A stretch of 64,000 nucleotides of DNA from a phage, in sequence record PX915676.1; one strand, given 5' to 3'. This document shows, in pieces, positions 1 to 21,325 of the stretch. The notes under the pieces were generated by a model. It was not told the DNA's origin. It searched no databases and worked only from the letters and a program-made list of their open reading frames with translations. How positions within the stretch are numbered: position 1 is the stretch's first letter; each line of letters opens with the position of its first letter. A program made the translations under genes and the position numbers.

Positions 1-3
1 GTA

Positions 4-201
4 ATGATGACTGTTCCTCTGAACACTCGTTACATTGCAATTGACAAGATGGGTTATGTATGGGCTTGGAAGATTAAGCCTAGCTATAACGCACTGTTTG
101 ATGAGTTTGTTTGTACTGGTACGTATAGTCCTACATTCTTAGGCTTATTTGGAGAGTTTGAAGGTCAGTATAAAATCATAACTCTCCCTGCTTGTGCTTG
201 A
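4..201 (+). CDS. hypothetical protein (possibly 5' partial)
   Basis: 65-aa ORF starting at ATG 4 next to window edge; no recognisable motif. Confidence 0.35.
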   Translation: MMTVPLNTRYIAIDKMGYVWAWKIKPSYNALFDEFVCTGTYSPTFLGLFGEFEGQYKIITLPACA

Positions 202-208
202 GGTTATT

Positions 209-373
209 ATGTTCAAGTGGTTTAAATATCTCTTCCATCTCCATGAATGGGAAACTGTAAAAGAGATTCGTTTAAATGTGTATGATGAGTTCGGTAAACT
301 AGAAGACACAGGGACTCGTTATATACTTCGATGTAAAACATGTGGTCATATCACCAAACGAGATATGATCTAA
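209..373 (+). CDS. small hypothetical protein with C-terminal CxxC
   Basis: 54-codon ORF; GAGG Shine-Dalgarno in TTGAGGTTATTATG context; ends ...CKTCGH. Confidence 0.4.
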   Translation: MFKWFKYLFHLHEWETVKEIRLNVYDEFGKLEDTGTRYILRCKTCGHITKRDMI

Positions 374-381
374 ATAATTCT

Positions 382-457
382 GCGCTCTTAGCTCAATGGA
401 TAGAGCAGTAGCCTTCTAAGCTATTGGTTACAGGTTCGAGTCCTGTAGGGCGCACCA
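382..457 (+). tRNA. tRNA-Arg (anticodon UCU)
   Basis: Cloverleaf folds by hand: acceptor GCGCTCT/AGGGCGC, D-arm GCTC-AATGGATA-GAGC, anticodon stem GTAGC/GCTAT with loop CTTCTAA (anticodon TCT), T-arm ACAGG-TTCGAGT-CCTGT, discriminator A and encoded CCA. Confidence 0.85.
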
Positions 458-463
458 CATTTA

Positions 464-578
464 GGGCTAGTATGGGTGCGGCACCAGAGTTAGTGTATCC
501 CTGTTGAGGCAAGTGCTTTTATAACAGTGGGAATTGCTTTCTTAGTGAGCTTCTGGTTCGATTCCAGATAGTCCACCA
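464..578 (+). ncRNA. tRNA-like element (non-canonical; possible degenerate tRNA or structured RNA)
   Basis: Canonical T-arm TCTGG-TTCGATT-CCAGA followed by ATAGTCC-A-CCA that pairs 6/7 with GGGCTAG at 464-470, but 115 nt long and no canonical D or anticodon arm could be folded. Confidence 0.3.
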
Positions 579-597
579 AATCAAATAGGAGGTAGTT

Positions 598-879
598 ATG
601 AGTTGGGGTGGTGTAATATCCTTAATCTGTATCTTCCTTGTCTGCATAGCCCTTACAGGCTGCGTACAGAGCCGTCCTGATGGATGGTGTGCAGTAGCAG
701 TGGAAGGTGTTTGTGTTTCTCGCTGGCATAAAGGTGAGAAGGTTCCTTCTGGTGAAATTGATATGCGTTACAGTGGTATCTCATGTCTGAATGGTGCAGC
801 AGTAGATGAGGAGACTAAAACCTTATCCGATGCGCAGTGGTGTGGTGGCTCTACAGTTACCACTGGTAAGGAGTGGTAA
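598..879 (+). CDS. predicted lipoprotein (Cys-rich), early gene
   Basis: AGGAGG SD 5 nt before ATG; N-terminal hydrophobic signal VISLICIFLVCIALTGC with lipobox L-T-G-C; mature part has 6 further Cys. Confidence 0.6.
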   Translation: MSWGGVISLICIFLVCIALTGCVQSRPDGWCAVAVEGVCVSRWHKGEKVPSGEIDMRYSGISCLNGAAVDEETKTLSDAQWCGGSTVTTGKEW

Positions 880-880
880 T

Positions 881-1042
881 GTGACTATTGAAGAACTCAT
901 TAGAACTCTTGAAAACTTATCTGTTACTTGTGGTCCAGATGCTATCGTCTACATCGAAGAACCTTCAGGGAATGAATACCCTGTGAAAGAGGTTCTTGAG
1001 TACTCAGTAGGAGATCTTTCATCAGTAACCCTAAGACATTGA
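881..1042 (+). CDS. hypothetical protein
   Basis: GTG start 7 nt after AAGGAG SD, overlapping the upstream stop; 53 aa. Confidence 0.4.
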   Translation: MTIEELIRTLENLSVTCGPDAIVYIEEPSGNEYPVKEVLEYSVGDLSSVTLRH

Positions 1043-1049
1043 GGTGTAT

Positions 1050-1298
1050 ATGACAGCTCATTATTGGAATACAAAGAAGCTTCTTGAAGAGATGGCTGGG
1101 GGTAGTAGGTTCCAGTTAAACTCCATGCTTCGAATGGATGCCCGCTCTTTACGTTTCCAAGTAAAGATTGGTAACTTCAGTGATGGCCTTTATTATACCT
1201 TGAAAGAAAGGATTAAGAAGACTCACTTCATCATATATGGACTCAAACCGAGAACATATGTTAACTACATGTATTGGGATACATGCTACGATAATTGA
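1050..1298 (+). CDS. hypothetical protein
   Basis: ATG after TGAGGTG SD; 82 aa. Confidence 0.45.
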   Translation: MTAHYWNTKKLLEEMAGGSRFQLNSMLRMDARSLRFQVKIGNFSDGLYYTLKERIKKTHFIIYGLKPRTYVNYMYWDTCYDN

Positions 1299-1305
1299 GG
1301 TTATT

Positions 1306-1527
1306 ATGTTATTTGAAGCTAAGCAAACATTACCAGTAGTTCCTTTGTCTACACTTCTTAGTGGGAGTGCTTTTAGACATGATAATGGTTTTTGGATTAA
1401 GGGCGACCAAGAGGTTGGAGGGTATATTACCTGCATCAACATCTGCAACGGCGTTGTTGACGGATTTCGTCCAGCCGCTGAAGTCACCCCTCAATCCAAC
1501 GCAAAGGTTGTAGGTTTAGTTTACTAA
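1306..1527 (+). CDS. hypothetical protein
   Basis: ATG in repeated TTGAGGTTATTATG initiation context; 73 aa. Confidence 0.45.
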   Translation: MLFEAKQTLPVVPLSTLLSGSAFRHDNGFWIKGDQEVGGYITCINICNGVVDGFRPAAEVTPQSNAKVVGLVY

Positions 1528-1735
1528 GGAGCCTGTATTAGTTGTTTTGGTGGCGGTGAAGTAGATGACGATGATGACATGGAATCCAACGGTACATGTC
1601 CTGATTGTGGATGTGAGACATGGGATGGGGTGTCTGTATACCCTGCCTGTAGTTACTCACCAGTGATCTGTAAAACATGTGGAGATCAACCTTGTGATCA
1701 GTCCTGTTAGTATCTTGATTGTCTACTTGACAGGT

Positions 1736-1927
1736 ATGGTGATAGTTTCAGCTCTGATAAAATTCCTTGACGTAAAAGGTAGTGTGGAGTTCAGAGGGTG
1801 GAACAACGAACCAAACCTATCAAAGATAGCAATTATAGTTTTTCTATGGCCTATCGTTGCTGTGGTTTTTATATCCCTTGTCTTGTGGGCTGCCCTGTGG
1901 GATTTTATACTCCCTAACAAGAACTAA
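1736..1927 (+). CDS. small membrane protein (2 predicted TM helices)
   Basis: ORF frame open from GTG 1679; first ATG at 1736; hydrophobic segments MVIVSALIKF and IAIIVFLWPIVAVVFISLVLWAALW. Confidence 0.4.
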   Translation: MVIVSALIKFLDVKGSVEFRGWNNEPNLSKIAIIVFLWPIVAVVFISLVLWAALWDFILPNKN

Positions 1928-2143
1928 GAACTTATCGTGAAGGATTCTTACGAGAGTCCTTTGAGATAGGACTTCAGATCTCCTATCAAACTAACATTCA
2001 CGTAACTAGCCCATAAGGGCGTTACCCTTTAATAACCCAGCCCACTAAGGGGGCGGGAGTTTAGTGCTGGATTGGCTTTACGCTTATTCCTACAAAGGCA
2101 ACCGATTGTTAGATCTTACATGCAATATTAATTAATAGGATAA

Positions 2144-2174
2144 GGGAGGATTCGTCCCCTCCCCCTATTTTATT
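2144..2174 (+). terminator. rho-independent terminator-like hairpin
   Basis: GGGAGG-ATTCGTCC-CCTCCC stem-loop followed by CCTATTTTATT. Confidence 0.5.
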
Positions 2175-2222
2175 GAATCTTTATCTAAGCAAGTCTTATA
2201 TAAACGTTTAATTGGAGGATGT

Positions 2223-2534
2223 ATGAAAGCACGAAGAACTATATGGACTCCGATGCAGATTGAAAATCTTCGGAGACTAATCAAAGAGTACTCAGTTCAA
2301 GAAGTTGCTCAGATTATGAATGTAACGGAGAATGCTGTTAACACAGCTTGCACTAAATTCGGAATATCAAGAGCTTCAATCCGAGTTAAATGGTCTGAAG
2401 AAGAAGACCAGTTCCTTATCCGTAACGCTGGGTTCATGTCTATTCAGAGAATGGCTGACATGCTCGGTAGAAGTTATGCTGCTGTACAGAACAGGGCATG
2501 TATGCACCTTAATATTAGCCTCAAACTTAAATAG
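2223..2534 (+). CDS. putative DNA-binding protein with two helix-turn-helix (Myb/SANT-like) repeats
   Basis: Two repeats of W-x...L...IA/MA...R pattern (WTPMQIENLRRL..VAQIMNVTENAV and WSEEEDQFLIRN..MADMLGRSYAAVQNR); GGAGGA SD. Confidence 0.45.
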   Translation: MKARRTIWTPMQIENLRRLIKEYSVQEVAQIMNVTENAVNTACTKFGISRASIRVKWSEEEDQFLIRNAGFMSIQRMADMLGRSYAAVQNRACMHLNISLKLK

Positions 2535-2542
2535 GAATCAAT

Positions 2543-2791
2543 ATGAAAATCACATATAAGAAAGAGGAAGTAGAAGCAGTAGAGCTAAGCTCTCTAGCTA
2601 ATGGTTCTGTGTTTAAATTCCCACACAATAAAGATCTTTATGTGAAAGGGGTTGTTACCTTAAGTCCTAACATCAAAATCCCAGATAACCGGATACCTAC
2701 TCTCCGGCTAGGTGATGGGGTTGTTTCAGCCCCTCTTGGTCGTTGTCAGGTTATCCCTGTGTCAGCTGAACTTTTAGTGAGTGGTTGCTAA
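2543..2791 (+). CDS. hypothetical protein, paralog family A copy 1
   Basis: 82 aa; shares length and spaced hydrophobic/Gly pattern with the next two ORFs. Confidence 0.5.
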   Translation: MKITYKKEEVEAVELSSLANGSVFKFPHNKDLYVKGVVTLSPNIKIPDNRIPTLRLGDGVVSAPLGRCQVIPVSAELLVSGC

Positions 2792-3036
2792 TGAAAATCA
2801 TCCCAAAGAAAAAGGATAATACGGTACGATTGGAAACAATCATTCCCGGAAACCCCTTCGTGGTTCAGCACGGAAGTGCCTCTCCTCAGTATTATATGAG
2901 GGTTGAAAATGCTTCTTGTAACATCCGTATAGCCAGTGGCTGGGTTCCTGTAGTGAATCTATCCACAGGTGTACTATCTGTTAAAGGTCTTGATGATCAG
3001 GTAGAAATGATTCGTATGTCTGTGGTTCAGGAGTGA
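2791..3036 (+). CDS. hypothetical protein, paralog family A copy 2
   Basis: ATG overlaps upstream stop (TAATG); about 81 aa. Confidence 0.5.
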   Translation: MKIIPKKKDNTVRLETIIPGNPFVVQHGSASPQYYMRVENASCNIRIASGWVPVVNLSTGVLSVKGLDDQVEMIRMSVVQE

Positions 3037-3038
3037 GA

Positions 3039-3284
3039 ATGAGCACGATACATATTAAGGTTCACAACAAAAAAGAAAAGAAACTCTTTGTTAAAGATCT
3101 GTCAACCGCTGACATCTTTACTTTAAAAGATGATGACAGTCAGGTCATTTATTTGATGATGCCTCTATCTGGTGGATATCGCAGAGCAGTTAATTTAGGT
3201 ACAGGCGAACCTCGTCCTGTTTCTGACACTCTTGAAGTTGGCGAGAAGTTTGCCAAAGCAGAGATCATCTTAACTCCGATGTAA
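3039..3284 (+). CDS. hypothetical protein, paralog family A copy 3
   Basis: ATG after CAGGAGTGAGA; about 81 aa. Confidence 0.5.
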   Translation: MSTIHIKVHNKKEKKLFVKDLSTADIFTLKDDDSQVIYLMMPLSGGYRRAVNLGTGEPRPVSDTLEVGEKFAKAEIILTPM

Positions 3285-3517
3285 GGGTAAGTAAGTGAAA
3301 ACAAAAGCATATTCTTATGATGATATGATTAACCAGAAAGGCTTCGGTCAACGACAGCCTGACGGTTCGATTATCTGGTTTGTAAACGGACAGAAAAAGG
3401 TAGCTAAATAAGCCCTCTTCTCTCCTCCTTTTAGTACTATGACGCCTCTCTGTGGGCGGCCCAATTTGCGTAGGGAATTCCCTCTACGCAGCCATGACTT
3501 TTTAAGGAATTTCCCCT

Positions 3518-3751
3518 ATGTCTAAAGTAAGCGCAATCGATGCAATCCGTCAACCGTTCCAGTTCCAATCCAAATCAACCCAAACCTTCAGCGAACCTAA
3601 GCAAATTCGCTTGGGTGGCACGGAGAAAACTGTGTTTGATCTGGCTAAAAACAAGAGCGTTACCGTAGTTGATGGCGGTACTCTGGTTAACGTTTCACAC
3701 CGCATTCGCACTGGCAAAACTGCCAAAGATCGTGCTAAGAAAGGTGAGTAA
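3518..3751 (+). CDS. hypothetical basic protein
   Basis: AAGGAA SD; 77 aa, Lys/Arg-rich C-terminus. Confidence 0.5.
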   Translation: MSKVSAIDAIRQPFQFQSKSTQTFSEPKQIRLGGTEKTVFDLAKNKSVTVVDGGTLVNVSHRIRTGKTAKDRAKKGE

Positions 3752-3993
3752 TGAAAATAGGGCAACCAGCTAAGGATGTTCTAGCGAAGATTAGTGATAT
3801 CTCTATTGGGGAAGTTTTCTCAGCAGAGCACTTTTCAAGTTACTACATGAAAATCCCTGACACTAAAGTAGAGGGTTGCATCATCCCTGCCAACGCAGTT
3901 AACCTGAACACAGGACATCTATCTGCATTCAAACCTGATTCACAGGTTACTGAGATCAAGGATGCTTATCTCGCATTTGGTGGGAATAAATAG
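3751..3993 (+). CDS. hypothetical protein
   Basis: ATG overlaps upstream stop (TAATGA); 80 aa. Confidence 0.5.
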   Translation: MKIGQPAKDVLAKISDISIGEVFSAEHFSSYYMKIPDTKVEGCIIPANAVNLNTGHLSAFKPDSQVTEIKDAYLAFGGNK

Positions 3994-4181
3994 AGTAACA
4001 TCTATAGCCTTCTTCGGAGGGCTATATGAGTTATTCTGACTCAACTAACCTAATCTTAATATATTTCCCGTATGGGGCCGATGCTAGGGAGAGGAACATT
4101 CCTCGAACATCCGTCGGATAGATATTTTAAGAGCAGGTTATCCACAGATATTGGGTAATATCTTTTTTGGATTTAAAGCTT

Positions 4182-4206
4182 GGCTCTTTTCGGAGAGTCC
4201 TTTTTT
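4182..4206 (+). terminator. terminator-like hairpin with T-run
   Basis: GGCTCT-TTTCGG-AGAGTCC imperfect stem followed by TTTTTT. Confidence 0.3.
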
Positions 4207-4225
4207 AAATTCAACGAGAGGAAAT

Positions 4226-4378
4226 ATGTCTAAATTAGATTTAAAACTGCTAGCAGCAGCGGTAGTGATTTGTGCACTAGCACTGGTAACGCAGAGAACA
4301 TCTGGATTTATTCAGTGTTTCTTTTCTGGACAATCCACTTATCAGTGGGTTATTGACGAGTGTAAACAACAGGAGTAA
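4226..4378 (+). CDS. small membrane/secreted protein
   Basis: ATG after GAGAGG SD; N-terminal hydrophobic stretch LLAAAVVICALALV; 50 aa. Confidence 0.4.
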   Translation: MSKLDLKLLAAAVVICALALVTQRTSGFIQCFFSGQSTYQWVIDECKQQE

Positions 4379-4380
4379 GT

Positions 4381-4743
4381 ATGAATACACGTCCCATCAA
4401 GGGCAACGTTAATATTGAAACTCTGAACAAGGTTGCATCAAACCTCGGTGGAATGTCCAACGATGAGCTTGAGCAAGAACTTGCTTGGATTGCAAATGGT
4501 ATCAAAGTTGCTAAAGGTAAGATTGCTCGTGAGCAAAGTAATATGAAAGCTCACAAGTATATCATCCGTCGTGCAAATATGTTACCGGAGCGGGTTGTAC
4601 ATCTTGCCCGTAAGAACTACGAAAGTGCTAAAGAAGCCCTGCTTGAAGCAGAATTTCAGAAGCATCAATTTATGAACAACTATCGAAACTTCCGAGATAT
4701 TCTCTATATCCGTAAATCGATTGAGTTGATTAAAAACCAATAG
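4381..4743 (+). CDS. hypothetical protein
   Basis: AGGAG SD; 120 aa. Confidence 0.5.
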   Translation: MNTRPIKGNVNIETLNKVASNLGGMSNDELEQELAWIANGIKVAKGKIAREQSNMKAHKYIIRRANMLPERVVHLARKNYESAKEALLEAEFQKHQFMNNYRNFRDILYIRKSIELIKNQ

Positions 4744-4754
4744 AGGTTGGTATA

Positions 4755-5954
4755 ATGTTTCCAGTAACATTAGAAGATACTGAAGGTAATGTTTTAACGG
4801 TCAACCCCCCTTGTTATGGGTTCCTTCAACTTCGCAACTATAATGGCGGCGTTGATGAAAATGATGACGAAGATGATGACTACTTCGACCCTAACATGTA
4901 TGAGGCAACTCATGGATGGAATATGCACGTTCGAGTGTGGCATGAAGAAGCTAACGTTCGTAGTGCTGATGGGGAAGAGTTCCTGTTAAGCCGAGAGATG
5001 GATATGTGTAAAATCAAACATATCTGGAACTCTGGAACTCACATGAAGATGTTAGGTTTTAGACGTTGGCGTGATGAAAAGCATGTAGCTGAAGCTTTAA
5101 GTTGGTGTTCGTATGAAGATGAAGACACACCTCCCAAGAATAACATCGAACGTTGGAACGACAAAAACCCTGAACATCGAACCACACCTCGTGCTGTACT
5201 GGAAGCTATGGAAGCATTTGTGGACAAAGATCGTCCCTCCTGTTTACGCTGGCACGATAAAGGTTTTATGGGGGTAGCAACTGAGAATATCCCTGCTGAT
5301 CGTTGTCTGTTCTATTTGATGTTAGACCGAACCTTCTATTGTGAAGATGAAGAGAGTCAAGTTGAAACCTTCCTCCATAAATGGTTGGTTGAAGGCTGGA
5401 CAATCCTTCAGGCTTATGTTTACTCACGAATGGTTAGCACTTACACTAACCTCTTGGGTGAAACGAAAGCAACTCTGGTTGGTAACGATTGGGATGCTTG
5501 TATTTTCCCAGCGTCACTATTTACGGTTGGCATGGCTGATAAATACGCTGAAGCATTTCAAGTGCCTTGGCGTCAACAGTCATATAGAGATGGATGCGGT
5601 CACTTTCGTGATGAAGACTTTAAGTGGATTCATTATGAGAACGACGAAACAGCAGAATTGCGAGTTAACAACTCAATGTTCTTGCCAGTGATGCACCCCG
5701 ATCTAGTAAAAGATGGGTCAGAGATACTTAAAGGTGATAATCTTTTGGTTAACTTTACCCGTCGCGTGTCTAAAAATGAGAGAACAGCTAACAGGTTAAT
5801 CTACGGCATTCGTGCCGAGGCTAAAGACCTGTTCAACATCTACAACATTGTTCAGCGATTTAGTAGTGGAACTCTGGACCAAAGTTCGGAGTATTCAGTG
5901 ATTCCGTCCTCTGAGTGGGATGGTGTTATGAGCGGATTATTTTTAGGAAAATAA
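4755..5954 (+). CDS. hypothetical protein (first gene of ligase cluster)
   Basis: 399 aa; AGAGGT SD; acidic patch DENDDEDDDYFDP; no motif recognised. Confidence 0.55.
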   Translation: MFPVTLEDTEGNVLTVNPPCYGFLQLRNYNGGVDENDDEDDDYFDPNMYEATHGWNMHVRVWHEEANVRSADGEEFLLSREMDMCKIKHIWNSGTHMKMLGFRRWRDEKHVAEALSWCSYEDEDTPPKNNIERWNDKNPEHRTTPRAVLEAMEAFVDKDRPSCLRWHDKGFMGVATENIPADRCLFYLMLDRTFYCEDEESQVETFLHKWLVEGWTILQAYVYSRMVSTYTNLLGETKATLVGNDWDACIFPASLFTVGMADKYAEAFQVPWRQQSYRDGCGHFRDEDFKWIHYENDETAELRVNNSMFLPVMHPDLVKDGSEILKGDNLLVNFTRRVSKNERTANRLIYGIRAEAKDLFNIYNIVQRFSSGTLDQSSEYSVIPSSEWDGVMSGLFLGK

Positions 5955-5964
5955 AAGGTTAGTT

Positions 5965-6936
5965 ATGTCAATCTCCACAACGATCGTACCTCTTAACCTT
6001 CAACAGGATTTAGGGGAACAGAAGTTCTTAGGTCGTGGGTGCTTCGGTATCCACAACTACATGCAAGGTCAAGTCGTATATGATGTTAATGACGAATGTG
6101 TAATGGAAGATGGGCGCCATAAACGCTTCAACCGTGACATTAACTTGCAATTGGAGATGTTGAATTACTGGACCCACTCTTTTCATGGTCATGTTCCATC
6201 TGATATTGAAAAGAACTTGATTGAAACAGCAGACATTATGAATTCTATGTCTTGCTATCGTGATGTATTTACTATCACTTCAGCGAACAGTGTTGCTGTC
6301 AATCTTCGTGAGCATCCAGCAGATCAGATCTTCACAGGACTTATGCTCTTCCGTAGTATTCTGGAAGGGCAATATCGTGGAATGGATTTCCTAGCAGAAG
6401 GAATTGAAGACAGGGAAGAGTGGCTGAAGCGTAAACGCATCGGCATCGCTCTAGTGTTAGCTGGGTTAGGTCGTGACTTCTTCGGTGGGTGGTCTCAACG
6501 AGGAAGAGCCAATGGTAGTAGCGAGAGCACCTCTATTGTTATTAACAACAATATGTCAGCAGCAGCATTCCTTCCTTTGGTTGTAGACTCTGATGAATAT
6601 ACGAAGCAAGTATGGGTTCAAAACCCCTTCGGTGTTGGCGACAATGAGAATGGTTATGTTCGTAACCACAACCAAGATGCCTTACGAAGATTTGCTCGTG
6701 CTAAAGATCAAGACCCAGACGAGTATGAAACAATGTCAGAGTGGTTAAGACTCTGGTCCAACTGTTATGGTCACAAACGTGAAGCAATAGACGACAAGTT
6801 GGGAAACATTACGGTACAAAACTTTACAGCCCGACTGATTCAAAGAACTGGAGCAGATTCCGGTCTTACTCTTGAAGAAGTTGGTAACACAATCTCATCT
6901 CTCTTTTCTGAACTAGTGGAGTATTACAATGACTAA
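5965..6936 (+). CDS. hypothetical protein (ligase cluster)
   Basis: 323 aa; AAAGG SD; no motif recognised. Confidence 0.55.
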   Translation: MSISTTIVPLNLQQDLGEQKFLGRGCFGIHNYMQGQVVYDVNDECVMEDGRHKRFNRDINLQLEMLNYWTHSFHGHVPSDIEKNLIETADIMNSMSCYRDVFTITSANSVAVNLREHPADQIFTGLMLFRSILEGQYRGMDFLAEGIEDREEWLKRKRIGIALVLAGLGRDFFGGWSQRGRANGSSESTSIVINNNMSAAAFLPLVVDSDEYTKQVWVQNPFGVGDNENGYVRNHNQDALRRFARAKDQDPDEYETMSEWLRLWSNCYGHKREAIDDKLGNITVQNFTARLIQRTGADSGLTLEEVGNTISSLFSELVEYYND

Positions 6937-7735
6937 GCGCAAATTCCTCATCGGCTCTGACCCTGAAATGTTCGTTCGTACTAGCAACGGTATCATCACC
7001 TCTGTAGCTGGTCTATTAGGATGTTCTAAGGACGATAAGATCGCTCTGGCTAAGGATGTTCGTCTTCAAGAGGACAACGTACTGGCTGAGTTTGACATTG
7101 ACCCACAGAGCGGTTTTGAAGCGTTTAACGATAACATGCAACGTGGTATTGATCTTACTAACAATGTCCTGAACAAACTGGATATGGAAACAGCTCCGGG
7201 TGTCAGCTCTCACATCTTCACCGAAGAAGAGATGAAAACCTTTAATGAATCAGCGTTCATCTTTGGATGCACTCCTGACTTCAACGCTTTCACTGGTCAG
7301 AAAAACCCATCCCCAACTTCTCAGAATAAGGGACTTCGTACTGCCGGTGGTCACGTACATCTTGGCGTAGTTGGTGCTTTGGATATCACTCTGCAAACTC
7401 AGATGATGCTGGGTGTGTTGTGTGACTACTTCCTGTCTCTCCCAGCAGTAATTATGGACAAAGATACTCGCCGTAAAGAACTCTACGGTAAAGCATCTGC
7501 AATCCGTTATAAAGACTATGGTATTGAATACCGTTCTCTGTCTAACTTCTGGATTAGTGATCGTGAAAACCGTAAGTTTGTTTACGATCAGGTTGACAAG
7601 GTTGTTCAGCAGTGTGATATGTCCACTCTGATGGCATTGCACTCTCGCCTTCCGATTGAGAAGCTTCATGAAATCATTAACGGGAACAACGTTAAAGAAG
7701 CTGACCAGCAGATCAAACTCCTTCAGGTAGCATAA
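6929..7735 (+). CDS. putative amidoligase (glutamine synthetase-like COOH-NH2 ligase), copy 1
   Basis: Motifs GSDPEMF, GGHVHLG and GIEYRSL resemble the E-x-E / HxH / E-[FY]-R signatures of that fold; assigned by eye. Confidence 0.45.
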   Translation: MTKRKFLIGSDPEMFVRTSNGIITSVAGLLGCSKDDKIALAKDVRLQEDNVLAEFDIDPQSGFEAFNDNMQRGIDLTNNVLNKLDMETAPGVSSHIFTEEEMKTFNESAFIFGCTPDFNAFTGQKNPSPTSQNKGLRTAGGHVHLGVVGALDITLQTQMMLGVLCDYFLSLPAVIMDKDTRRKELYGKASAIRYKDYGIEYRSLSNFWISDRENRKFVYDQVDKVVQQCDMSTLMALHSRLPIEKLHEIINGNNVKEADQQIKLLQVA

Positions 7736-7744
7736 GAGGTTATC

Positions 7745-8362
7745 GTGAGCTTAGTAGCTGATTTTTCTCATTACTATAATGGTACATGGATTGCTAAACG
7801 AGCAGGCAATATCAACCTTCCGTGTTTTGTGATTGGTGTTGAGCAGAGCGGTAACTTCCGCAGTGATGACTTCTCGCATGAAGCAGAACAGGCTCTGTAT
7901 TTTGTTGTAGAGCAGTGGTACAAGAACGAGCATGGGAATCTCCGAAACACTACGATGAATATTCCAGTGTTTGACCCAACCTTGATTCTTGAATCACCTG
8001 ATGTTGGTTATCTGTTCCATAACGGTAACACTGTAAGCTGGACTCATATCAATCCTGTTCGTCAGAGAGCGAAGGGTTTGATGGGTAACAAGATTCGAAA
8101 CGCTCCGGGGATTGGTCGTTCGATCTCTGGTGAAATGGTTTACAGTCTGTTCAATCCTGAATTTGATGGATTGGTTACTCGTTATATTTACATCAATCCT
8201 ACAGATGGTAAAGTGCATTATAAAGGTGCACTGGTAGGTCAGGTAGATCTGGAAGCGCCTCGTGACTCTTACGGTCAACAACCGATGCGACTTCTGGAAC
8301 ATTTTCATCACATCTCTGAAAACCTTAGCAATTATAATATTACGTTGGTGGATTCGTTATGA
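7745..8362 (+). CDS. hypothetical protein (ligase cluster)
   Basis: GTG start after AAGAGGT; 205 aa. Confidence 0.45.
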   Translation: MSLVADFSHYYNGTWIAKRAGNINLPCFVIGVEQSGNFRSDDFSHEAEQALYFVVEQWYKNEHGNLRNTTMNIPVFDPTLILESPDVGYLFHNGNTVSWTHINPVRQRAKGLMGNKIRNAPGIGRSISGEMVYSLFNPEFDGLVTRYIYINPTDGKVHYKGALVGQVDLEAPRDSYGQQPMRLLEHFHHISENLSNYNITLVDSL

Positions 8363-18020: not shown

Positions 18021-18554
18021 ATGAGTTTACTAGGAAGTATTGAACTGCATGATGTAATTGACAATGGCTATCTGGATGCGGAGCATAAGTATGTTAACGC
18101 TGCTAGTGTGGATATCCGTATTGGTGATACTATCCTTGTTGAAGAACAGGCTGATGGCATCGTTGATATTGATGCGAAAGAGAATCTTCAGTGGAAGGAA
18201 GTAAAGATTCCTGAAGAGGGTTTGGTTATCACTCCGGGTCAGTTCTTCTTGGCTCACTCTATGGAGGAGTTTAACCTTCCAGATAACATCTCAAGTCTGT
18301 TTGTTCTGCGTTCGTCTATGGCTCGTTGTGGTTTGAACCACCTTCACGCCGGTTGGGCAGATGCAGGATTTAATAGCAGTAAGCTGACATTTGAATTCCA
18401 TAACGTAACCAAGCACCACAGCTTACGAGTTCGTGCTGGTATGCGTGTTGGTCAGATGGTTATGTTTGAGCACTCTCATGCAGGGGAACACTCCTATGCA
18501 GTGAAGGGTCGTTATAATAACTCTGAAGGTGTGGTTGCATCTAAAGGTGTGTAA
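18021..18554 (+). CDS. dcd: dCTP deaminase/dUTPase-superfamily protein
   Basis: ASVDIRIGD and RSSMARCGL motifs typical of dCTP deaminase; AAGGA SD. Confidence 0.6.
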   Translation: MSLLGSIELHDVIDNGYLDAEHKYVNAASVDIRIGDTILVEEQADGIVDIDAKENLQWKEVKIPEEGLVITPGQFFLAHSMEEFNLPDNISSLFVLRSSMARCGLNHLHAGWADAGFNSSKLTFEFHNVTKHHSLRVRAGMRVGQMVMFEHSHAGEHSYAVKGRYNNSEGVVASKGV

Positions 18555-18752
18555 ATGAAAAAGTGGATTGTTCGTGTACATGATAACACGACTGGAGAGT
18601 TAGTAGCTGTAGATTTTGTTAAGACTCGAGAACACGCACGTAGGGTCAAAAATCAATACAAGTCTACTTTTAGACTTAACAAGGTTACAATTGGAAAAGC
18701 TATTGTGAATAGCGAAGGTGCTTTTATTGCCAACAGTAAGGTTTATTATTAA
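18555..18752 (+). CDS. small protein, paralog family B copy 1
   Basis: 65 aa; W-x-[VI]-R, TRE-x-AR and C-terminal SKV-[YH]-Y shared with next two ORFs. Confidence 0.5.
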   Translation: MKKWIVRVHDNTTGELVAVDFVKTREHARRVKNQYKSTFRLNKVTIGKAIVNSEGAFIANSKVYY

Positions 18753-18961
18753 TGAGACCGATCACTATGAGACAATTTTGGTTAGCAAAGATTAAGTGGG
18801 TATCAGGTGGCATGACTATGACTGCACTACCCACTCGCCAACAAGCTCGAGATTTTAAAAAGACTATGCTTACTGGTGACGTGGTCAATAGTATCAGTAT
18901 CCATAAGGCCAAGGAATATTCCTCTGGTCGTGTTTATATCAGCGGAAAGGTACACTACTAA
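18752..18961 (+). CDS. small protein, paralog family B copy 2
   Basis: 69 aa; start overlaps upstream stop (TAATG). Confidence 0.5.
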   Translation: MRPITMRQFWLAKIKWVSGGMTMTALPTRQQARDFKKTMLTGDVVNSISIHKAKEYSSGRVYISGKVHY

Positions 18962-19170
18962 TGAAAAAGATGTGGGCTATTAGAATTGTTTGGGAACGTG
19001 AGCAACACCTAGGCAAAGATAATATCAAACTGTTTGAAACTCGTGAAGAGGCTCGTATTGCTAAGAAGGAGTTGAAGACTCTGATCGGAACTATTAAAAG
19101 TGTTGACATTCATCGCTGGTACGAAGACCCTAGCTCGGGTTCTTTTATGTCTAAAGTAATTTATTACTGA
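18961..19170 (+). CDS. small protein, paralog family B copy 3
   Basis: 69 aa; start overlaps upstream stop (TAATG). Confidence 0.5.
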   Translation: MKKMWAIRIVWEREQHLGKDNIKLFETREEARIAKKELKTLIGTIKSVDIHRWYEDPSSGSFMSKVIYY

Positions 19171-19242
19171 TTGGTAGTAGATATGGTAACTCTCAAATGT
19201 ATATAGAGTACAATAAGAATTTGTATTTTACAGGAGAGAGTT

Positions 19243-19572
19243 ATGTTAGATTTGAGTAAAGTGGCCCCGCCCACTGAAGAGATTACAAAATCCAAGGTGA
19301 TGCAACAGTTTTATCATCGTGATATGCTTGGTCGCTTTATCAAGAATCGTGATGTTGTTGCTTGGTCTATTGGTAATCAGGGATATCTGTTGAAGGTTCT
19401 TCAGGTTACAGGTTCAACTGCTAAGCGAGTTAAGGTGTATGACCCTGAAATGGGGCGTTCTAAGTCAGTAGACCCACAGAACTGCATCGTAATTACCCAG
19501 CAGGTAATGGATAATATTGCACGTAATGTTGCTAACTCAGTTGAACTTGATGGAGAAAACCCAAATGCATAA
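19243..19572 (+). CDS. hypothetical protein
   Basis: GGAGAGAG SD; 109 aa. Confidence 0.45.
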   Translation: MLDLSKVAPPTEEITKSKVMQQFYHRDMLGRFIKNRDVVAWSIGNQGYLLKVLQVTGSTAKRVKVYDPEMGRSKSVDPQNCIVITQQVMDNIARNVANSVELDGENPNA

Positions 19573-20128: not shown

Positions 20129-20189
20129 AAACCTCCGCCCTGTCTCCTAACCCGAGGTGGGGCGAACTTATTTATAAGGATATAGATAT

Positions 20190-20377: not shown

Positions 20378-20653
20378 ATGTCTAAAGTAATTAAGTTTTA
20401 TAGTGATCAGTGTGCTCCATGTAAAGCAATGGCTCCTACCTTTGAGAAGGTTGTTAAGGAGTTTGATGTAGAAGTGGAAGAGATTAACATCCTTGAAGGT
20501 GATGGTCGTGAACAAGCTGTTAAGTATGGTATACGAAGCATCCCTGCTTTTGTTGTGCCTGACCGTAACAGTGGTGCACACTACAGCCTCTCCGGTATGC
20601 AGACTGAAGCAAACCTGAAAGCATTTTTGGACACAGCCCTGAGAAATAAGTAA
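20378..20653 (+). CDS. thioredoxin
   Basis: FYSDQCAPCKAMAP active-site region and GIRSIPAFVV cis-Pro region; 91 aa. Confidence 0.75.
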   Translation: MSKVIKFYSDQCAPCKAMAPTFEKVVKEFDVEVEEINILEGDGREQAVKYGIRSIPAFVVPDRNSGAHYSLSGMQTEANLKAFLDTALRNK

Positions 20654-20668
20654 TAAGGATATTCACGG

Positions 20669-21325
20669 ATGAATGAACAACTACAAGCAACATTAATCGA
20701 AGCTATGGGAAGTGATCGTAGCGTAGTAAACGCAGCTCGAGTTTCCTTTGGCGTAACCCGTGAAGGTGATTTAAATGAACGTGATGAACGTCTCATCAAC
20801 TTCCTCGCACGGGAAAAACACTGTACCCCATTCCGACACCCGCAAGTCAGCTTCCGATGCAAAGCACCTATTGCAATTGCGAGACAGCTGGGCAAGCATC
20901 AGGTTGGATTCTCGTGGAACGAAATGTCCCGGCGGTATAAAGATGGAGCAGTTGAAGTCTTCATCCCTAAAGAGATTTTTGCGAGACCTTCGGACCTCCA
21001 TGCAGGTTCAGGGATTCAACTCATCGACGGAGAGCGAGCTGAAGCATTAATGCTGATTAACGATGCATATGAAGCTTCTCTAGCAGCATATGACAAGTTG
21101 ATTGAATTTATTGCACCAGAGCAAGCTCGATTTGTTCTTCCTCAGGGGATGATCACTGAGTGGGTGTGGACCGGTTCTTTGTATGGCTGGTTTGAGTTGT
21201 GTCGTCAGCGACTCTCCTCTCACGCTCAATATGAAGTTCGAGTGTTTGCTAAATCTGTAGACGAAGAGATGGCTAAGATCTACCCAATCTCGTGGGCAGC
21301 CCTGAAGAAAACTTTGGAGAGTTAA
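20669..21325 (+). CDS. ThyX-like (flavin-dependent thymidylate synthase family) protein, divergent
   Basis: HCTPFRHPQVSFRC...LGKHQVGFSWNEMSRRY aligns to the ThyX core but has KHQ where the RHR of the RHR-x7-8-S motif is expected. Confidence 0.45.
   Translation: MNEQLQATLIEAMGSDRSVVNAARVSFGVTREGDLNERDERLINFLAREKHCTPFRHPQVSFRCKAPIAIARQLGKHQVGFSWNEMSRRYKDGAVEVFIPKEIFARPSDLHAGSGIQLIDGERAEALMLINDAYEASLAAYDKLIEFIAPEQARFVLPQGMITEWVWTGSLYGWFELCRQRLSSHAQYEVRVFAKSVDEEMAKIYPISWAALKKTLES

Follow-up and report, generated by a model that had tools for sequence, protein, structure and literature searches.

Three small genes that stand in tandem directly after a phage dCTP deaminase gene (dcd) are real, co-translated protein-coding genes, and they belong to an orphan family of basic proteins that is core to the subfamily Gordonclarkvirinae. 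Alignment statistics and a shared profile identify the three, here called A, B and C, as true paralogs, and the distribution of their relatives dates the triplication as ancient, not recent. The trio is one case of a variable array, with two to four copies in the slot after dcd in each related lineage examined and zero to two extra copies in a second slot. The best explanation that we can offer for its function, and we offer it tentatively, is that the three are co-translated, non-enzymatic binders of polyanions (nucleic acid) acting together during replication. Table 1 lists the relevant features of the window, by which we mean the whole 64-kb stretch of phage DNA that was analysed.

Table 1. 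The array and its surroundings in the window
Feature	Position	Strand	Properties	Basis or location
dCTP deaminase gene (dcd)	18021-18554	+		PF22769 DCD, E 3.6e-34
Candidate Shine-Dalgarno of A, AAAGGTG	18543-18549	+		In last codons of dcd
Paralog A	18555-18752	+	65 aa; pI 10.2; net charge +8	ORF list
Candidate Shine-Dalgarno of B, AAGGT	18738-18742	+		In Lys-Val codons of A
Paralog B	18752-18961	+	69 aa from ATG 18752, 64 aa from ATG 18767; pI 10.4-10.6	
Candidate Shine-Dalgarno of C, AAGGT	18947-18951	+		In Lys-Val codons of B
Paralog C	18961-19170	+	69 aa; pI 9.5; net charge +4	Last array gene
gp36-type phage-sigma promoter of gene 68 ortholog	19172-19203	+		WAATGTATA search
Gene 68 ortholog	19243-19572	+		Next gene after trio

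Coordinates and sequence agree with the earlier note on this DNA, which described three back-to-back small ORFs with TAATG overlaps after the dCTP deaminase gene. The dcd stop codon TAA occupies 18552-18554 and the ATG of A abuts it at 18555. Both internal junctions (A/B and B/C) read TAATG, with a 1-base overlap of stop and start at 18752 and 18961. Every start (A, B and C) has a Shine-Dalgarno sequence 5-10 nt upstream, the AAGGT before B lying 9 nt upstream of the A/B TAATG junction. For B the Met6 position (18767) is the start in many orthologs, and the alignment of B with phrog_4939 begins at residue 6.

The proteins are only 26-27% identical to one another in pairwise comparison, and their relationship was therefore scored against shuffled sequences and profiles. 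Smith-Waterman z was 7.6 for A-B and 10.3 for B-C, scores reached by none of 2000 shuffles in either case, and 4.4 for A-C (6 of 2000 shuffles). All three match phrog_4939 (PHROGs v4) over its full length, profile positions 1-67 of 67, with E-values of 2.1e-27 (A), 2.6e-27 (B) and 2.7e-27 (C). The tandem triplication that had been proposed from the letters of the sequence is thus borne out. A family HMM matches A, B and C and nothing else in the whole 64-kb window, and it gives exactly three matches in 50 kb of phage Bas90. There is no nucleotide-level repeat within 18400-19300, so the triplication is detectable at the protein level only.

Of the motifs put forward earlier for the trio, W-x-[VI]-R and TRE-x-AR fit A (WIVR, TREHAR) and C (WAIR, TREEAR) exactly and B (WLAK, TRQQAR) loosely. 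Like them, the proposed tail SKV-[YH]-Y was slightly over-generalised; A (SKVYY) and C (SKVIYY) fit, B (GKVHY) does so loosely. A pattern that covers the family as a whole is W / [TS]-R-x-x-[AS]-R-x-x-K, in which the W, both R and the K are invariant, while the T, the A and a final Tyr are retained in at least 90% of members. This C-terminal Tyr is the last residue in every Gordonclarkvirinae member, despite identities of 20-30% and variable lengths. A stripe of Arg/Lys residues is conserved at the start of the helix.

Each protein is a single domain of about 7.5 kDa, and all family members tested are strongly basic (pI 9.5-10.75, net charge +4 to +11). Structure prediction, which the earlier note had suggested as a check, gave confident beta-beta-alpha-beta-beta models: with a 52-sequence alignment as input, AlphaFold2 reached a pLDDT of 89.3 for B and 87.9 for C, and the order of elements is identical in the two. 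In the model of C these elements are a strand (residues 2-11), a second strand (22-25), a helix (28-39) and two further strands (45-56 and 60-63). Independent BFVD models for orthologs of the other paralogs superpose with TM 0.67-0.85; apart from orthologs, BFVD gave only weak matches in phages LAh_8 and CsaP_009 and in SE131, which is 7-11-like. In the models the conserved Trp lies in strand 1, T-R-x-x-A-R-x-x-K forms the helix start, and the Tyr is C-terminal. The sequence varies mainly in the loop that links strands 1 and 2, in the helix end with the loop that follows, and in the last hairpin, which in C is hypervariable.

The earlier note had left the trio without an assigned function, and the databases and literature searched agree in holding no assignment. 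For 52 family members no Pfam match was better than E 0.0067, and A, B and C had none. The best matches in NCBIfam (E 0.09) and PADLOC (E 0.02) were far below cut-off, a PDB sequence search gave no meaningful match, and Rfam gave nothing in the trio region. Structure comparison found no recognised nucleic-acid-binding fold or motif; its closest comparisons included PsaD and generic two-layer alpha/beta sandwiches (ACT, PII, RRM, cyclase-palm-like, topoisomerase IA subdomain). As modelled, the family fold is simple and without an informative relative. No mention of these genes, of their paralogy or of phrog_4939 was found in the literature searched.

Three leads on the fold or function were tried and rejected. 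A W-x-V ... T-x-x-E-A pattern in small beta-beta-alpha-beta domains is a feature of DUF2188 (PF09954) and of the YegP domain DUF1508 (PF07411); neither was present among the Pfam matches of the 52 members at E-values up to 10. The combination of beta-grasp sheet order and flexible C-terminal Gly-Gly tail that defines the ubiquitin-like modifiers (ThiS, MoaD, ubiquitin) is absent from the trio. A DNA-mimic anti-restriction role of the Ocr, ArdA and Ugi class, considered in view of the restriction resistance of the Gordonclarkvirinae, is excluded by charge, the pI of the family being 9.5-10.75. Ocr, ArdA, Ugi and p56 are likewise small phage proteins made before or during replication, but they are strongly acidic whereas the trio family is basic, and there is no sequence or structure match between them.

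The 4-kb stretch around the trio is 95-98% identical to about 60 Escherichia/Shigella podophages of the genus Kuravirus, subfamily Gordonclarkvirinae, with FS2B and SkaterBoy_Bas90 (Bas90) as the best DNA matches (97.8-97.9%). The window is itself a Kuravirus, a phiEco32-like coliphage. Kuravirus records annotate the orthologs of A, B and C as hypothetical proteins. In the type phage phiEco32 the orthologs are gp71, gp70 and gp69, respectively (YP_001671816, YP_001671815 and YP_001671814; amino acid identity 92% for A, 87% for B and 80% for C), which sit between the dCTP deaminase (gp72) and gene 68. Others occur in SU10, Bas90, NJ01 and further phages, in the order dcd, three small genes, gene 68 with its gp36 promoter. 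Ortholog counts were based on tblastn against 50,697 phage records: B was found in 99 of 99 related records (the number that the 4-kb DNA query matched), C in 95 and A in 65. B co-occurs with C almost universally, the two being joined by the coupled junction.

Wider searches returned the same group of phages. A word-seeded search of 5.8 billion proteins gave 93 clusters in three orthologous groups. An exhaustive HMMER search of 1.84 billion representatives gave only 19 clusters at E < 1e-3, and all of these whose genomic context was examined belong to this phage group; a further search, with a more diverse profile, brought no relatives from beyond it. A locus search with a single protein query found one IMG/VR locus only, NJ01.

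The array itself has a recurrent layout in which dCTP deaminase is followed by two to four tandem members joined by TAATG or TGATG, a gene of 109-110 aa, and a Dps/ferritin-like gene; this order recurs in four divergent loci (L007, L009, L012 and L016). The trio, placed between dcd and the gene 68 ortholog with overlapping stops and starts, is a member of this dcd-proximal array of the Gordonclarkvirinae. Two members follow dcd in the Suseptimavirus phages ECBP2 and PAS59, and divergent metagenomic relatives have three or four in the slot. When five divergent clusters were looked up, four were in the dcd slot, with P0107 and P0108 in the second slot before ThyX, and all sat within the same gene module. 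The second slot, between thioredoxin and ThyX, holds two extra members in two Suseptimavirus-like metagenomic contigs (L012 and L013) and one in 4E8 and NJ01; it is empty in the window. In SU10, 4E8 and ECBP2 the array is separated from dcd by small inserted genes that are unrelated to the family.

In a neighbour-joining tree the Suseptimavirus genes fall inside the B and C clades, so the duplication that separated B from C predates the genera. A is confined to Kuravirus and is a later addition, or was lost elsewhere. The second-slot genes form a separate clade. In a different phage family, Salmonella phage 7-11 and related Moazamivirus phages have one remote member (HMM E 1.7e-6), unannotated in the RefSeq record, with the motif KTRAEARAHKK and the C-terminus ...YKKVR rather than Tyr. 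It is located elsewhere in the genome, adjacent to neither dcd, thioredoxin nor ThyX. This remote single copy indicates that the family is older than the Gordonclarkvirinae.

Selection was measured as dN/dS (Nei-Gojobori) in the annotated frames of six Kuravirus genomes. Values were 0.17-0.41 for A, 0-0.16 for B, which is the most conserved and most widespread member, and about 0.1-0.35 for C (informative pairs), compared with 0-0.05 for the flanking genes dcd and 68, so that the trio runs at 5-10 times its neighbours. Since the range of 0.02-0.4 is below 1, A, B and C are by this measure under purifying selection, weaker than that on the neighbouring genes. The trio is also conserved among lineages with saturated synonymous sites. 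Frameshifted copies of A occur in two metagenomic clusters, P0060 and P0087.

Alleles are exchanged gene by gene between lineages, to judge from their mismatched sources and from contrasts in dS. Compared with Bas90, the window is 99% identical in dcd and gene 68, and 93.9%, 96.7% and 84.3% identical in A, B and C; dS is 0.19, 0.15 and 0.41 for A, B and C versus 0.03-0.045 for the flanks. Between 4E8 and SU10 the flanks have a dS of about 1, yet C is nearly identical (dS 0.03). The dCTP deaminase of the window is 100% identical in amino acid sequence to the Bas90 and SU10 proteins, A is 100% identical to that of Bas91, and B is 98.4% identical to that of FS2B. The C allele of the window differs more than that of any deposited phage, with a best amino acid identity of 82.6% in the phage collection and 87% in metagenomes. 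Some C-type proteins (P0086 and P0088) bear a B-like C-terminal hairpin, which hints that paralogs have recombined.

Part of the conserved tail serves two purposes. Codon tables were compared over 10 loci with 18 internal array members. In 16 of the 18 the Lys/Glu-Val codons four residues from the end are AAG-GTN or GAG-GTN, and this pair serves the next gene as its Shine-Dalgarno sequence, 9 nt upstream of the overlapping start. The terminal Kuravirus member retains Lys-Val but has it coded as AAA-GTA, a non-Shine-Dalgarno form. At internal positions the conserved K-V, as read from these codons, doubles as the ribosome-binding site of the next gene, and this part of the tail is there under nucleic-acid constraint. 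We also considered whether conservation of the tail might be a mere by-product of the downstream start, and rejected this: terminal members keep V-x-Y, usually preceded by Lys, and its retention where there is no downstream gene shows that a protein-level constraint is real. With a Shine-Dalgarno sequence inside each preceding gene and the TAATG overlap, the three proteins should be made together and in similar amounts. A unit duplicated from its ATG through the TA of its stop codon brings a ribosome-binding site with it; the dual-use Lys-Val codons illustrate how tandem duplication can yield, in a single step, an array with coupled translation.

On its 3′ side the transcription unit of the trio is bounded by the promoter of gene 68. 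[quoted passage not shown] The AATGTA is centred at -11.5, and the C-terminal domain of gp36 contacts a G at -37 and an A at -34 (PMC12276001). The window has six WAATGTATA sites. One such element, AAATGTATA at 19195-19203, stands between the stop of C and the gene 68 ortholog, and its -35 region TGGTAGTAG begins 2 nt after that stop. Centring AATGTA at -11.5 places the predicted transcription start at about 19210, with G19173 at -37 and A19176 at -34. This intergenic promoter region is conserved in all the diverged loci. The conserved TTGGTAGTAGATAT after C was also considered as an operator for the trio; its match to the gp36 promoter's -35 region makes such a role unnecessary.

No gp36-type motif is found on the plus strand anywhere in 1-19194; this, together with the promoter after C, makes the trio the tail of the upstream transcription unit. 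The same unit contains a COOH-NH2 ligase (PF14395), an Amidoligase_2 (PF12224), a glutamine amidotransferase, a gamma-glutamyl cyclotransferase and a RimK-like ATP-grasp gene, in addition to a primase/helicase, a DNA polymerase exonuclease subunit, a nucleotidyltransferase and dcd. Gene 79 lies upstream of the trio and gene 36 downstream of it; since PMC8948821 classes the two as middle genes, genes 69-71 are probably delayed-early or middle.

What the proteins do must be judged from their size, charge, conservation and setting. They are too small for enzymes and have no catalytic motif, which argues for non-enzymatic binding proteins, and the high positive charge that all of them share suggests a polyanionic ligand, with nucleic acid (phage DNA or RNA) as the likeliest. 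The neighbourhood of the trio is one of replication and nucleotide metabolism. Under the reading that we tentatively prefer, the conserved scaffold (the strand-1 Trp, the T-R-x-x-A-R-x-x-K helix start and the C-terminal Tyr) would display the more variable loops, and the proteins would bind phage DNA or RNA in the replication phase. An ancestral homo-oligomer or monomer may have given rise to a hetero-oligomer of paralogs, or to several sub-specialised binders. That all Gordonclarkvirinae keep B and nearly all keep C, in coupled form, while 7-11 has a single copy, favours an oligomer or sub-specialisation over three unrelated jobs. The independent reassortment of A, B and C alleles argues against tightly co-evolving interfaces.

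Small basic nucleic-acid-binding proteins of phages, such as lambda Cro and Xis, Mu Ner and Com, T4 DsbA and phi29 p6, are like the trio in size (60-100 aa), in high pI, in being expressed in the early or middle phase and in lacking an enzymatic motif. The likeness is one of kind alone; a relationship to the trio was detected neither in sequence nor in fold. Their folds are helix-turn-helix, winged-helix, zinc-finger or other, not beta-beta-alpha-beta-beta.

Some observations on the family run counter to nucleic-acid binding. The conserved Arg and Lys residues could be structural, through cation-pi contacts or salt bridges to the Trp and Tyr. A basic charge is compatible with an acidic protein surface as partner as well. 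The higher dN/dS and varying copy number fit the usual pattern of genes for host interaction better than that of core replication factors.

The last of these points leads to the main alternative, one that we consider somewhat unlikely although it deserves serious weight: that the proteins are host-takeover or anti-defence inhibitors, each paralog binding a different or differently allelic host protein through its variable loops, with an arms race that makes the array grow, shrink and swap alleles. Such a role would account for the dN/dS of 0.2-0.4 against 0-0.05 in the flanks, for the replacement of alleles (the C dS of 0.41 with Bas90, the near identity of C in 4E8 and SU10), for the copy number of two to four with a second slot in some lineages, for the hypervariable hairpin of C and for the unrelated small genes inserted beside the array in SU10, 4E8 and ECBP2. 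It could also be connected with the unexplained restriction-modification resistance of the Gordonclarkvirinae (PMC11990801). It sits poorly with B, which is not patchy in distribution, being present in 99 of 99 records with a dN/dS of 0-0.16 and a fixed place in the replication module; nor are strongly basic proteins like the acidic DNA-mimic anti-restriction class, and PADLOC gave no match to any known defence-related model. More improbable is that the trio supplies accessory, scaffold or regulatory subunits to dCTP deaminase, ThyX, thioredoxin or a hypothetical nucleotidyltransferase-linked DNA-modification pathway. Both slots of the family in the Gordonclarkvirinae adjoin dcd or thioredoxin/ThyX, the trio of the window comes directly after dcd and is translationally coupled to it, and the BASEL authors suggest that dcd and the nucleotidyltransferase may create a DNA modification (PMC11990801). 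Nevertheless, the single member of 7-11-like phages is beside none of these genes, in SU10, 4E8 and ECBP2 the array tolerates separation from dcd by unrelated genes, and dcd and ThyX are nearly invariant while the trio alleles swap, which is hard to fit to a tight interface.

The C-terminal Tyr raises the question of a substrate. RimK acting on ribosomal protein S6, tubulin tyrosine ligase and Pup-type tagging would be parallels for ligation at a protein terminus. We regard it as very unlikely that the trio proteins are substrates or carriers of the phage amidoligase/ATP-grasp system with the Tyr carboxylate as ligation site, even though Tyr is last in every Gordonclarkvirinae member, including terminal ones that lack the overlap constraint, the ligase, amidoligase and ATP-grasp genes share the transcription unit of the trio, and 7-11 carries both the enzyme cluster and a family member. 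That member ends in ...YKKVR; the exhaustive search gave only 19 clusters, whose examined contexts all lie in this phage group, with no sign of the family in other lineages, and the enzyme cluster is carried by other phage groups as well; and the terminal Tyr may simply pack against the sheet. That the ORFs are untranslated, spurious or decaying remnants is scarcely credible. The frameshifted A copies in P0060 and P0087 could be read that way, and proteomic or ribosome-profiling data were not found in the literature searched, but the purifying selection in the annotated frames, the conservation over lineages with saturated synonymous sites, the Shine-Dalgarno sequence at each start and the confident predicted folds all speak for translated genes.

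Gordonclarkvirinae are described as ‘remarkably resistant’ to restriction-modification systems by a mechanism that is not known (PMC11990801), and the location of the trio adjoins genes proposed to underlie this resistance. As a long shot, the trio, as a phage-specific set made together with the dCTP deaminase and nucleotidyltransferase, might be the missing non-catalytic part of it, by coating or marking replicating phage DNA or as the carrier in a pathway of DNA or protein modification via the C-terminal Tyr. If true, both the fold family and the mechanism of anti-restriction or modification would be new.

As a genomic feature the trio is ordinary, a lineage-specific tandem expansion of a small gene. 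The genes have been deposited since 2008 as hypothetical proteins and were already grouped in one PHROG. New here are the proof of paralogy and selection, the age and variable architecture of the array, the confident orphan fold, the signature of basic helix and terminal Tyr, the in-codon ribosome-binding sites and the exact operon boundary. A whole subfamily of coliphages in therapeutic use has this family among its core genes, and no relatives of the family by sequence or fold are known. Its basic helix start and terminal Tyr make a clear signature that can be mutated directly. Deletions are feasible in Bas90 and Bas91, which infect O-antigen-restored E. coli K-12 and whose arrays differ little from this one.

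The Lys-Val codons near the C-terminal ends of internal array members, spelled AAG-GTN or GAG-GTN, provide at the same time the Shine-Dalgarno sequence for the gene that follows. This dual-use rule is obeyed by 16 of the 18 internal array members whose codons were compared over ten loci. The terminal member of the three tandem paralogs (A, B and C), C, retains Lys-Val, but spells it AAA-GTA. Coordinates of these and other features are collected in the table. At 2543-3284 the window holds another trio of adjoining small ORFs, which overlap at their junctions and encode 82, 83 and 83 aa; its second and third ORFs are 29% and 17% identical to the first, and it is presumably the 'first' triplication implied by the earlier note.

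Features of the array, its relatives and the gp36-type promoters
Feature	Location	Strand
Shine-Dalgarno for A, in last codons of dcd (dCTP deaminase gene)	window 18543-18549	+
Shine-Dalgarno for B, in Lys-Val codons of A	window 18738-18742	+
Shine-Dalgarno for C, in Lys-Val codons of B	window 18947-18951	+
TTGGTAGTAGATAT and gp36-type motif, first copy	window 19171-19203	+
TTGGTAGTAGATAT and gp36-type motif, second copy	window about 30305-30274	minus
Inserted 68-aa Cys-rich ORF, SU10 (gp072)	L002 3113-3319	
Inserted 68-aa Cys-rich ORF, 4E8	L011 1886-2092	
Inserted 63-aa hydrophobic (membrane-like) ORF, ECBP2	L005 1398-1589	
Second-slot family member, 4E8	L011 4577-4792	
Second-slot family member	L003 6064-6273	
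Second-slot family members, Suseptimavirus-like metagenomic contig	L012 4771-5213	
Family member, Salmonella phage 7-11	L017 946-1167 (NC_015938 40945-41166)	minus

Downstream of C, the 14-nt element TTGGTAGTAGATAT is found 10 nt 5′ of a motif of the type used by the phage sigma factor gp36. Of the window's six promoters with such a motif, exactly two have the element and the other four lack it. The element is kept in all diverged relatives. In a published cryo-EM complex (PMC12276001), the C-terminal domain of gp36 touches the bases at -37 and -34. These positions are taken by the G and the A of TTGGTAGTAGATAT, which is therefore the -35 region of the gp36-type promoter.

The alleles of the array are mosaic, gene by gene. 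A is 100% identical to its counterpart in phage Bas91 and B 98.4% identical to that in FS2B, while C (18961-19170) is an unusual allele, for which the 50,697 deposited phage genomes offer nothing closer than 82.6% amino acid identity; in contrast to this divergence, the genes flanking the array are 99-100% identical between the window and Bas90. The junction of dcd with the array is a hot spot for insertions: SU10 and 4E8 carry an unrelated Cys-rich ORF between dcd and A, and ECBP2 an unrelated hydrophobic one at the same position.

In other lineages the interval between the thioredoxin and ThyX genes is a second slot, holding one or two extra family members; in the window (20653-20669) it is only a 15-nt gap. 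Phage 7-11 has a single remote member (73 aa; motif KTRAEARAHKK; HMM E-value 1.7e-6), not shown in the listed RefSeq annotation, where the overlapping ORF gp055 is annotated in its place. The 7-11-type member was found also in SE131, SeKF_80 and pSal-SNUABM-01.

Directly 3′ of the Dps/ferritin-like gene is a strong terminator-like hairpin (20136-20164; 11 pairs, seven of them G-C), the sole terminator candidate of such strength on the + strand from 12 to 22 kb. The phiEco32-type peptide-ligase cluster lies 5′ of the array on the same strand (6929-14135, +), and comprises a COOH-NH2 ligase (PF14395), an Amidoligase_2 protein (PF12224), a glutamine amidotransferase, a gamma-glutamyl cyclotransferase and, by homology to the Bas90 annotation, a RimK-like ATP-grasp protein. 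A tRNA gene at 382-454 (Rfam RF00005, 72 bits) is probably the counterpart of the tRNA-Arg annotated in Bas90.
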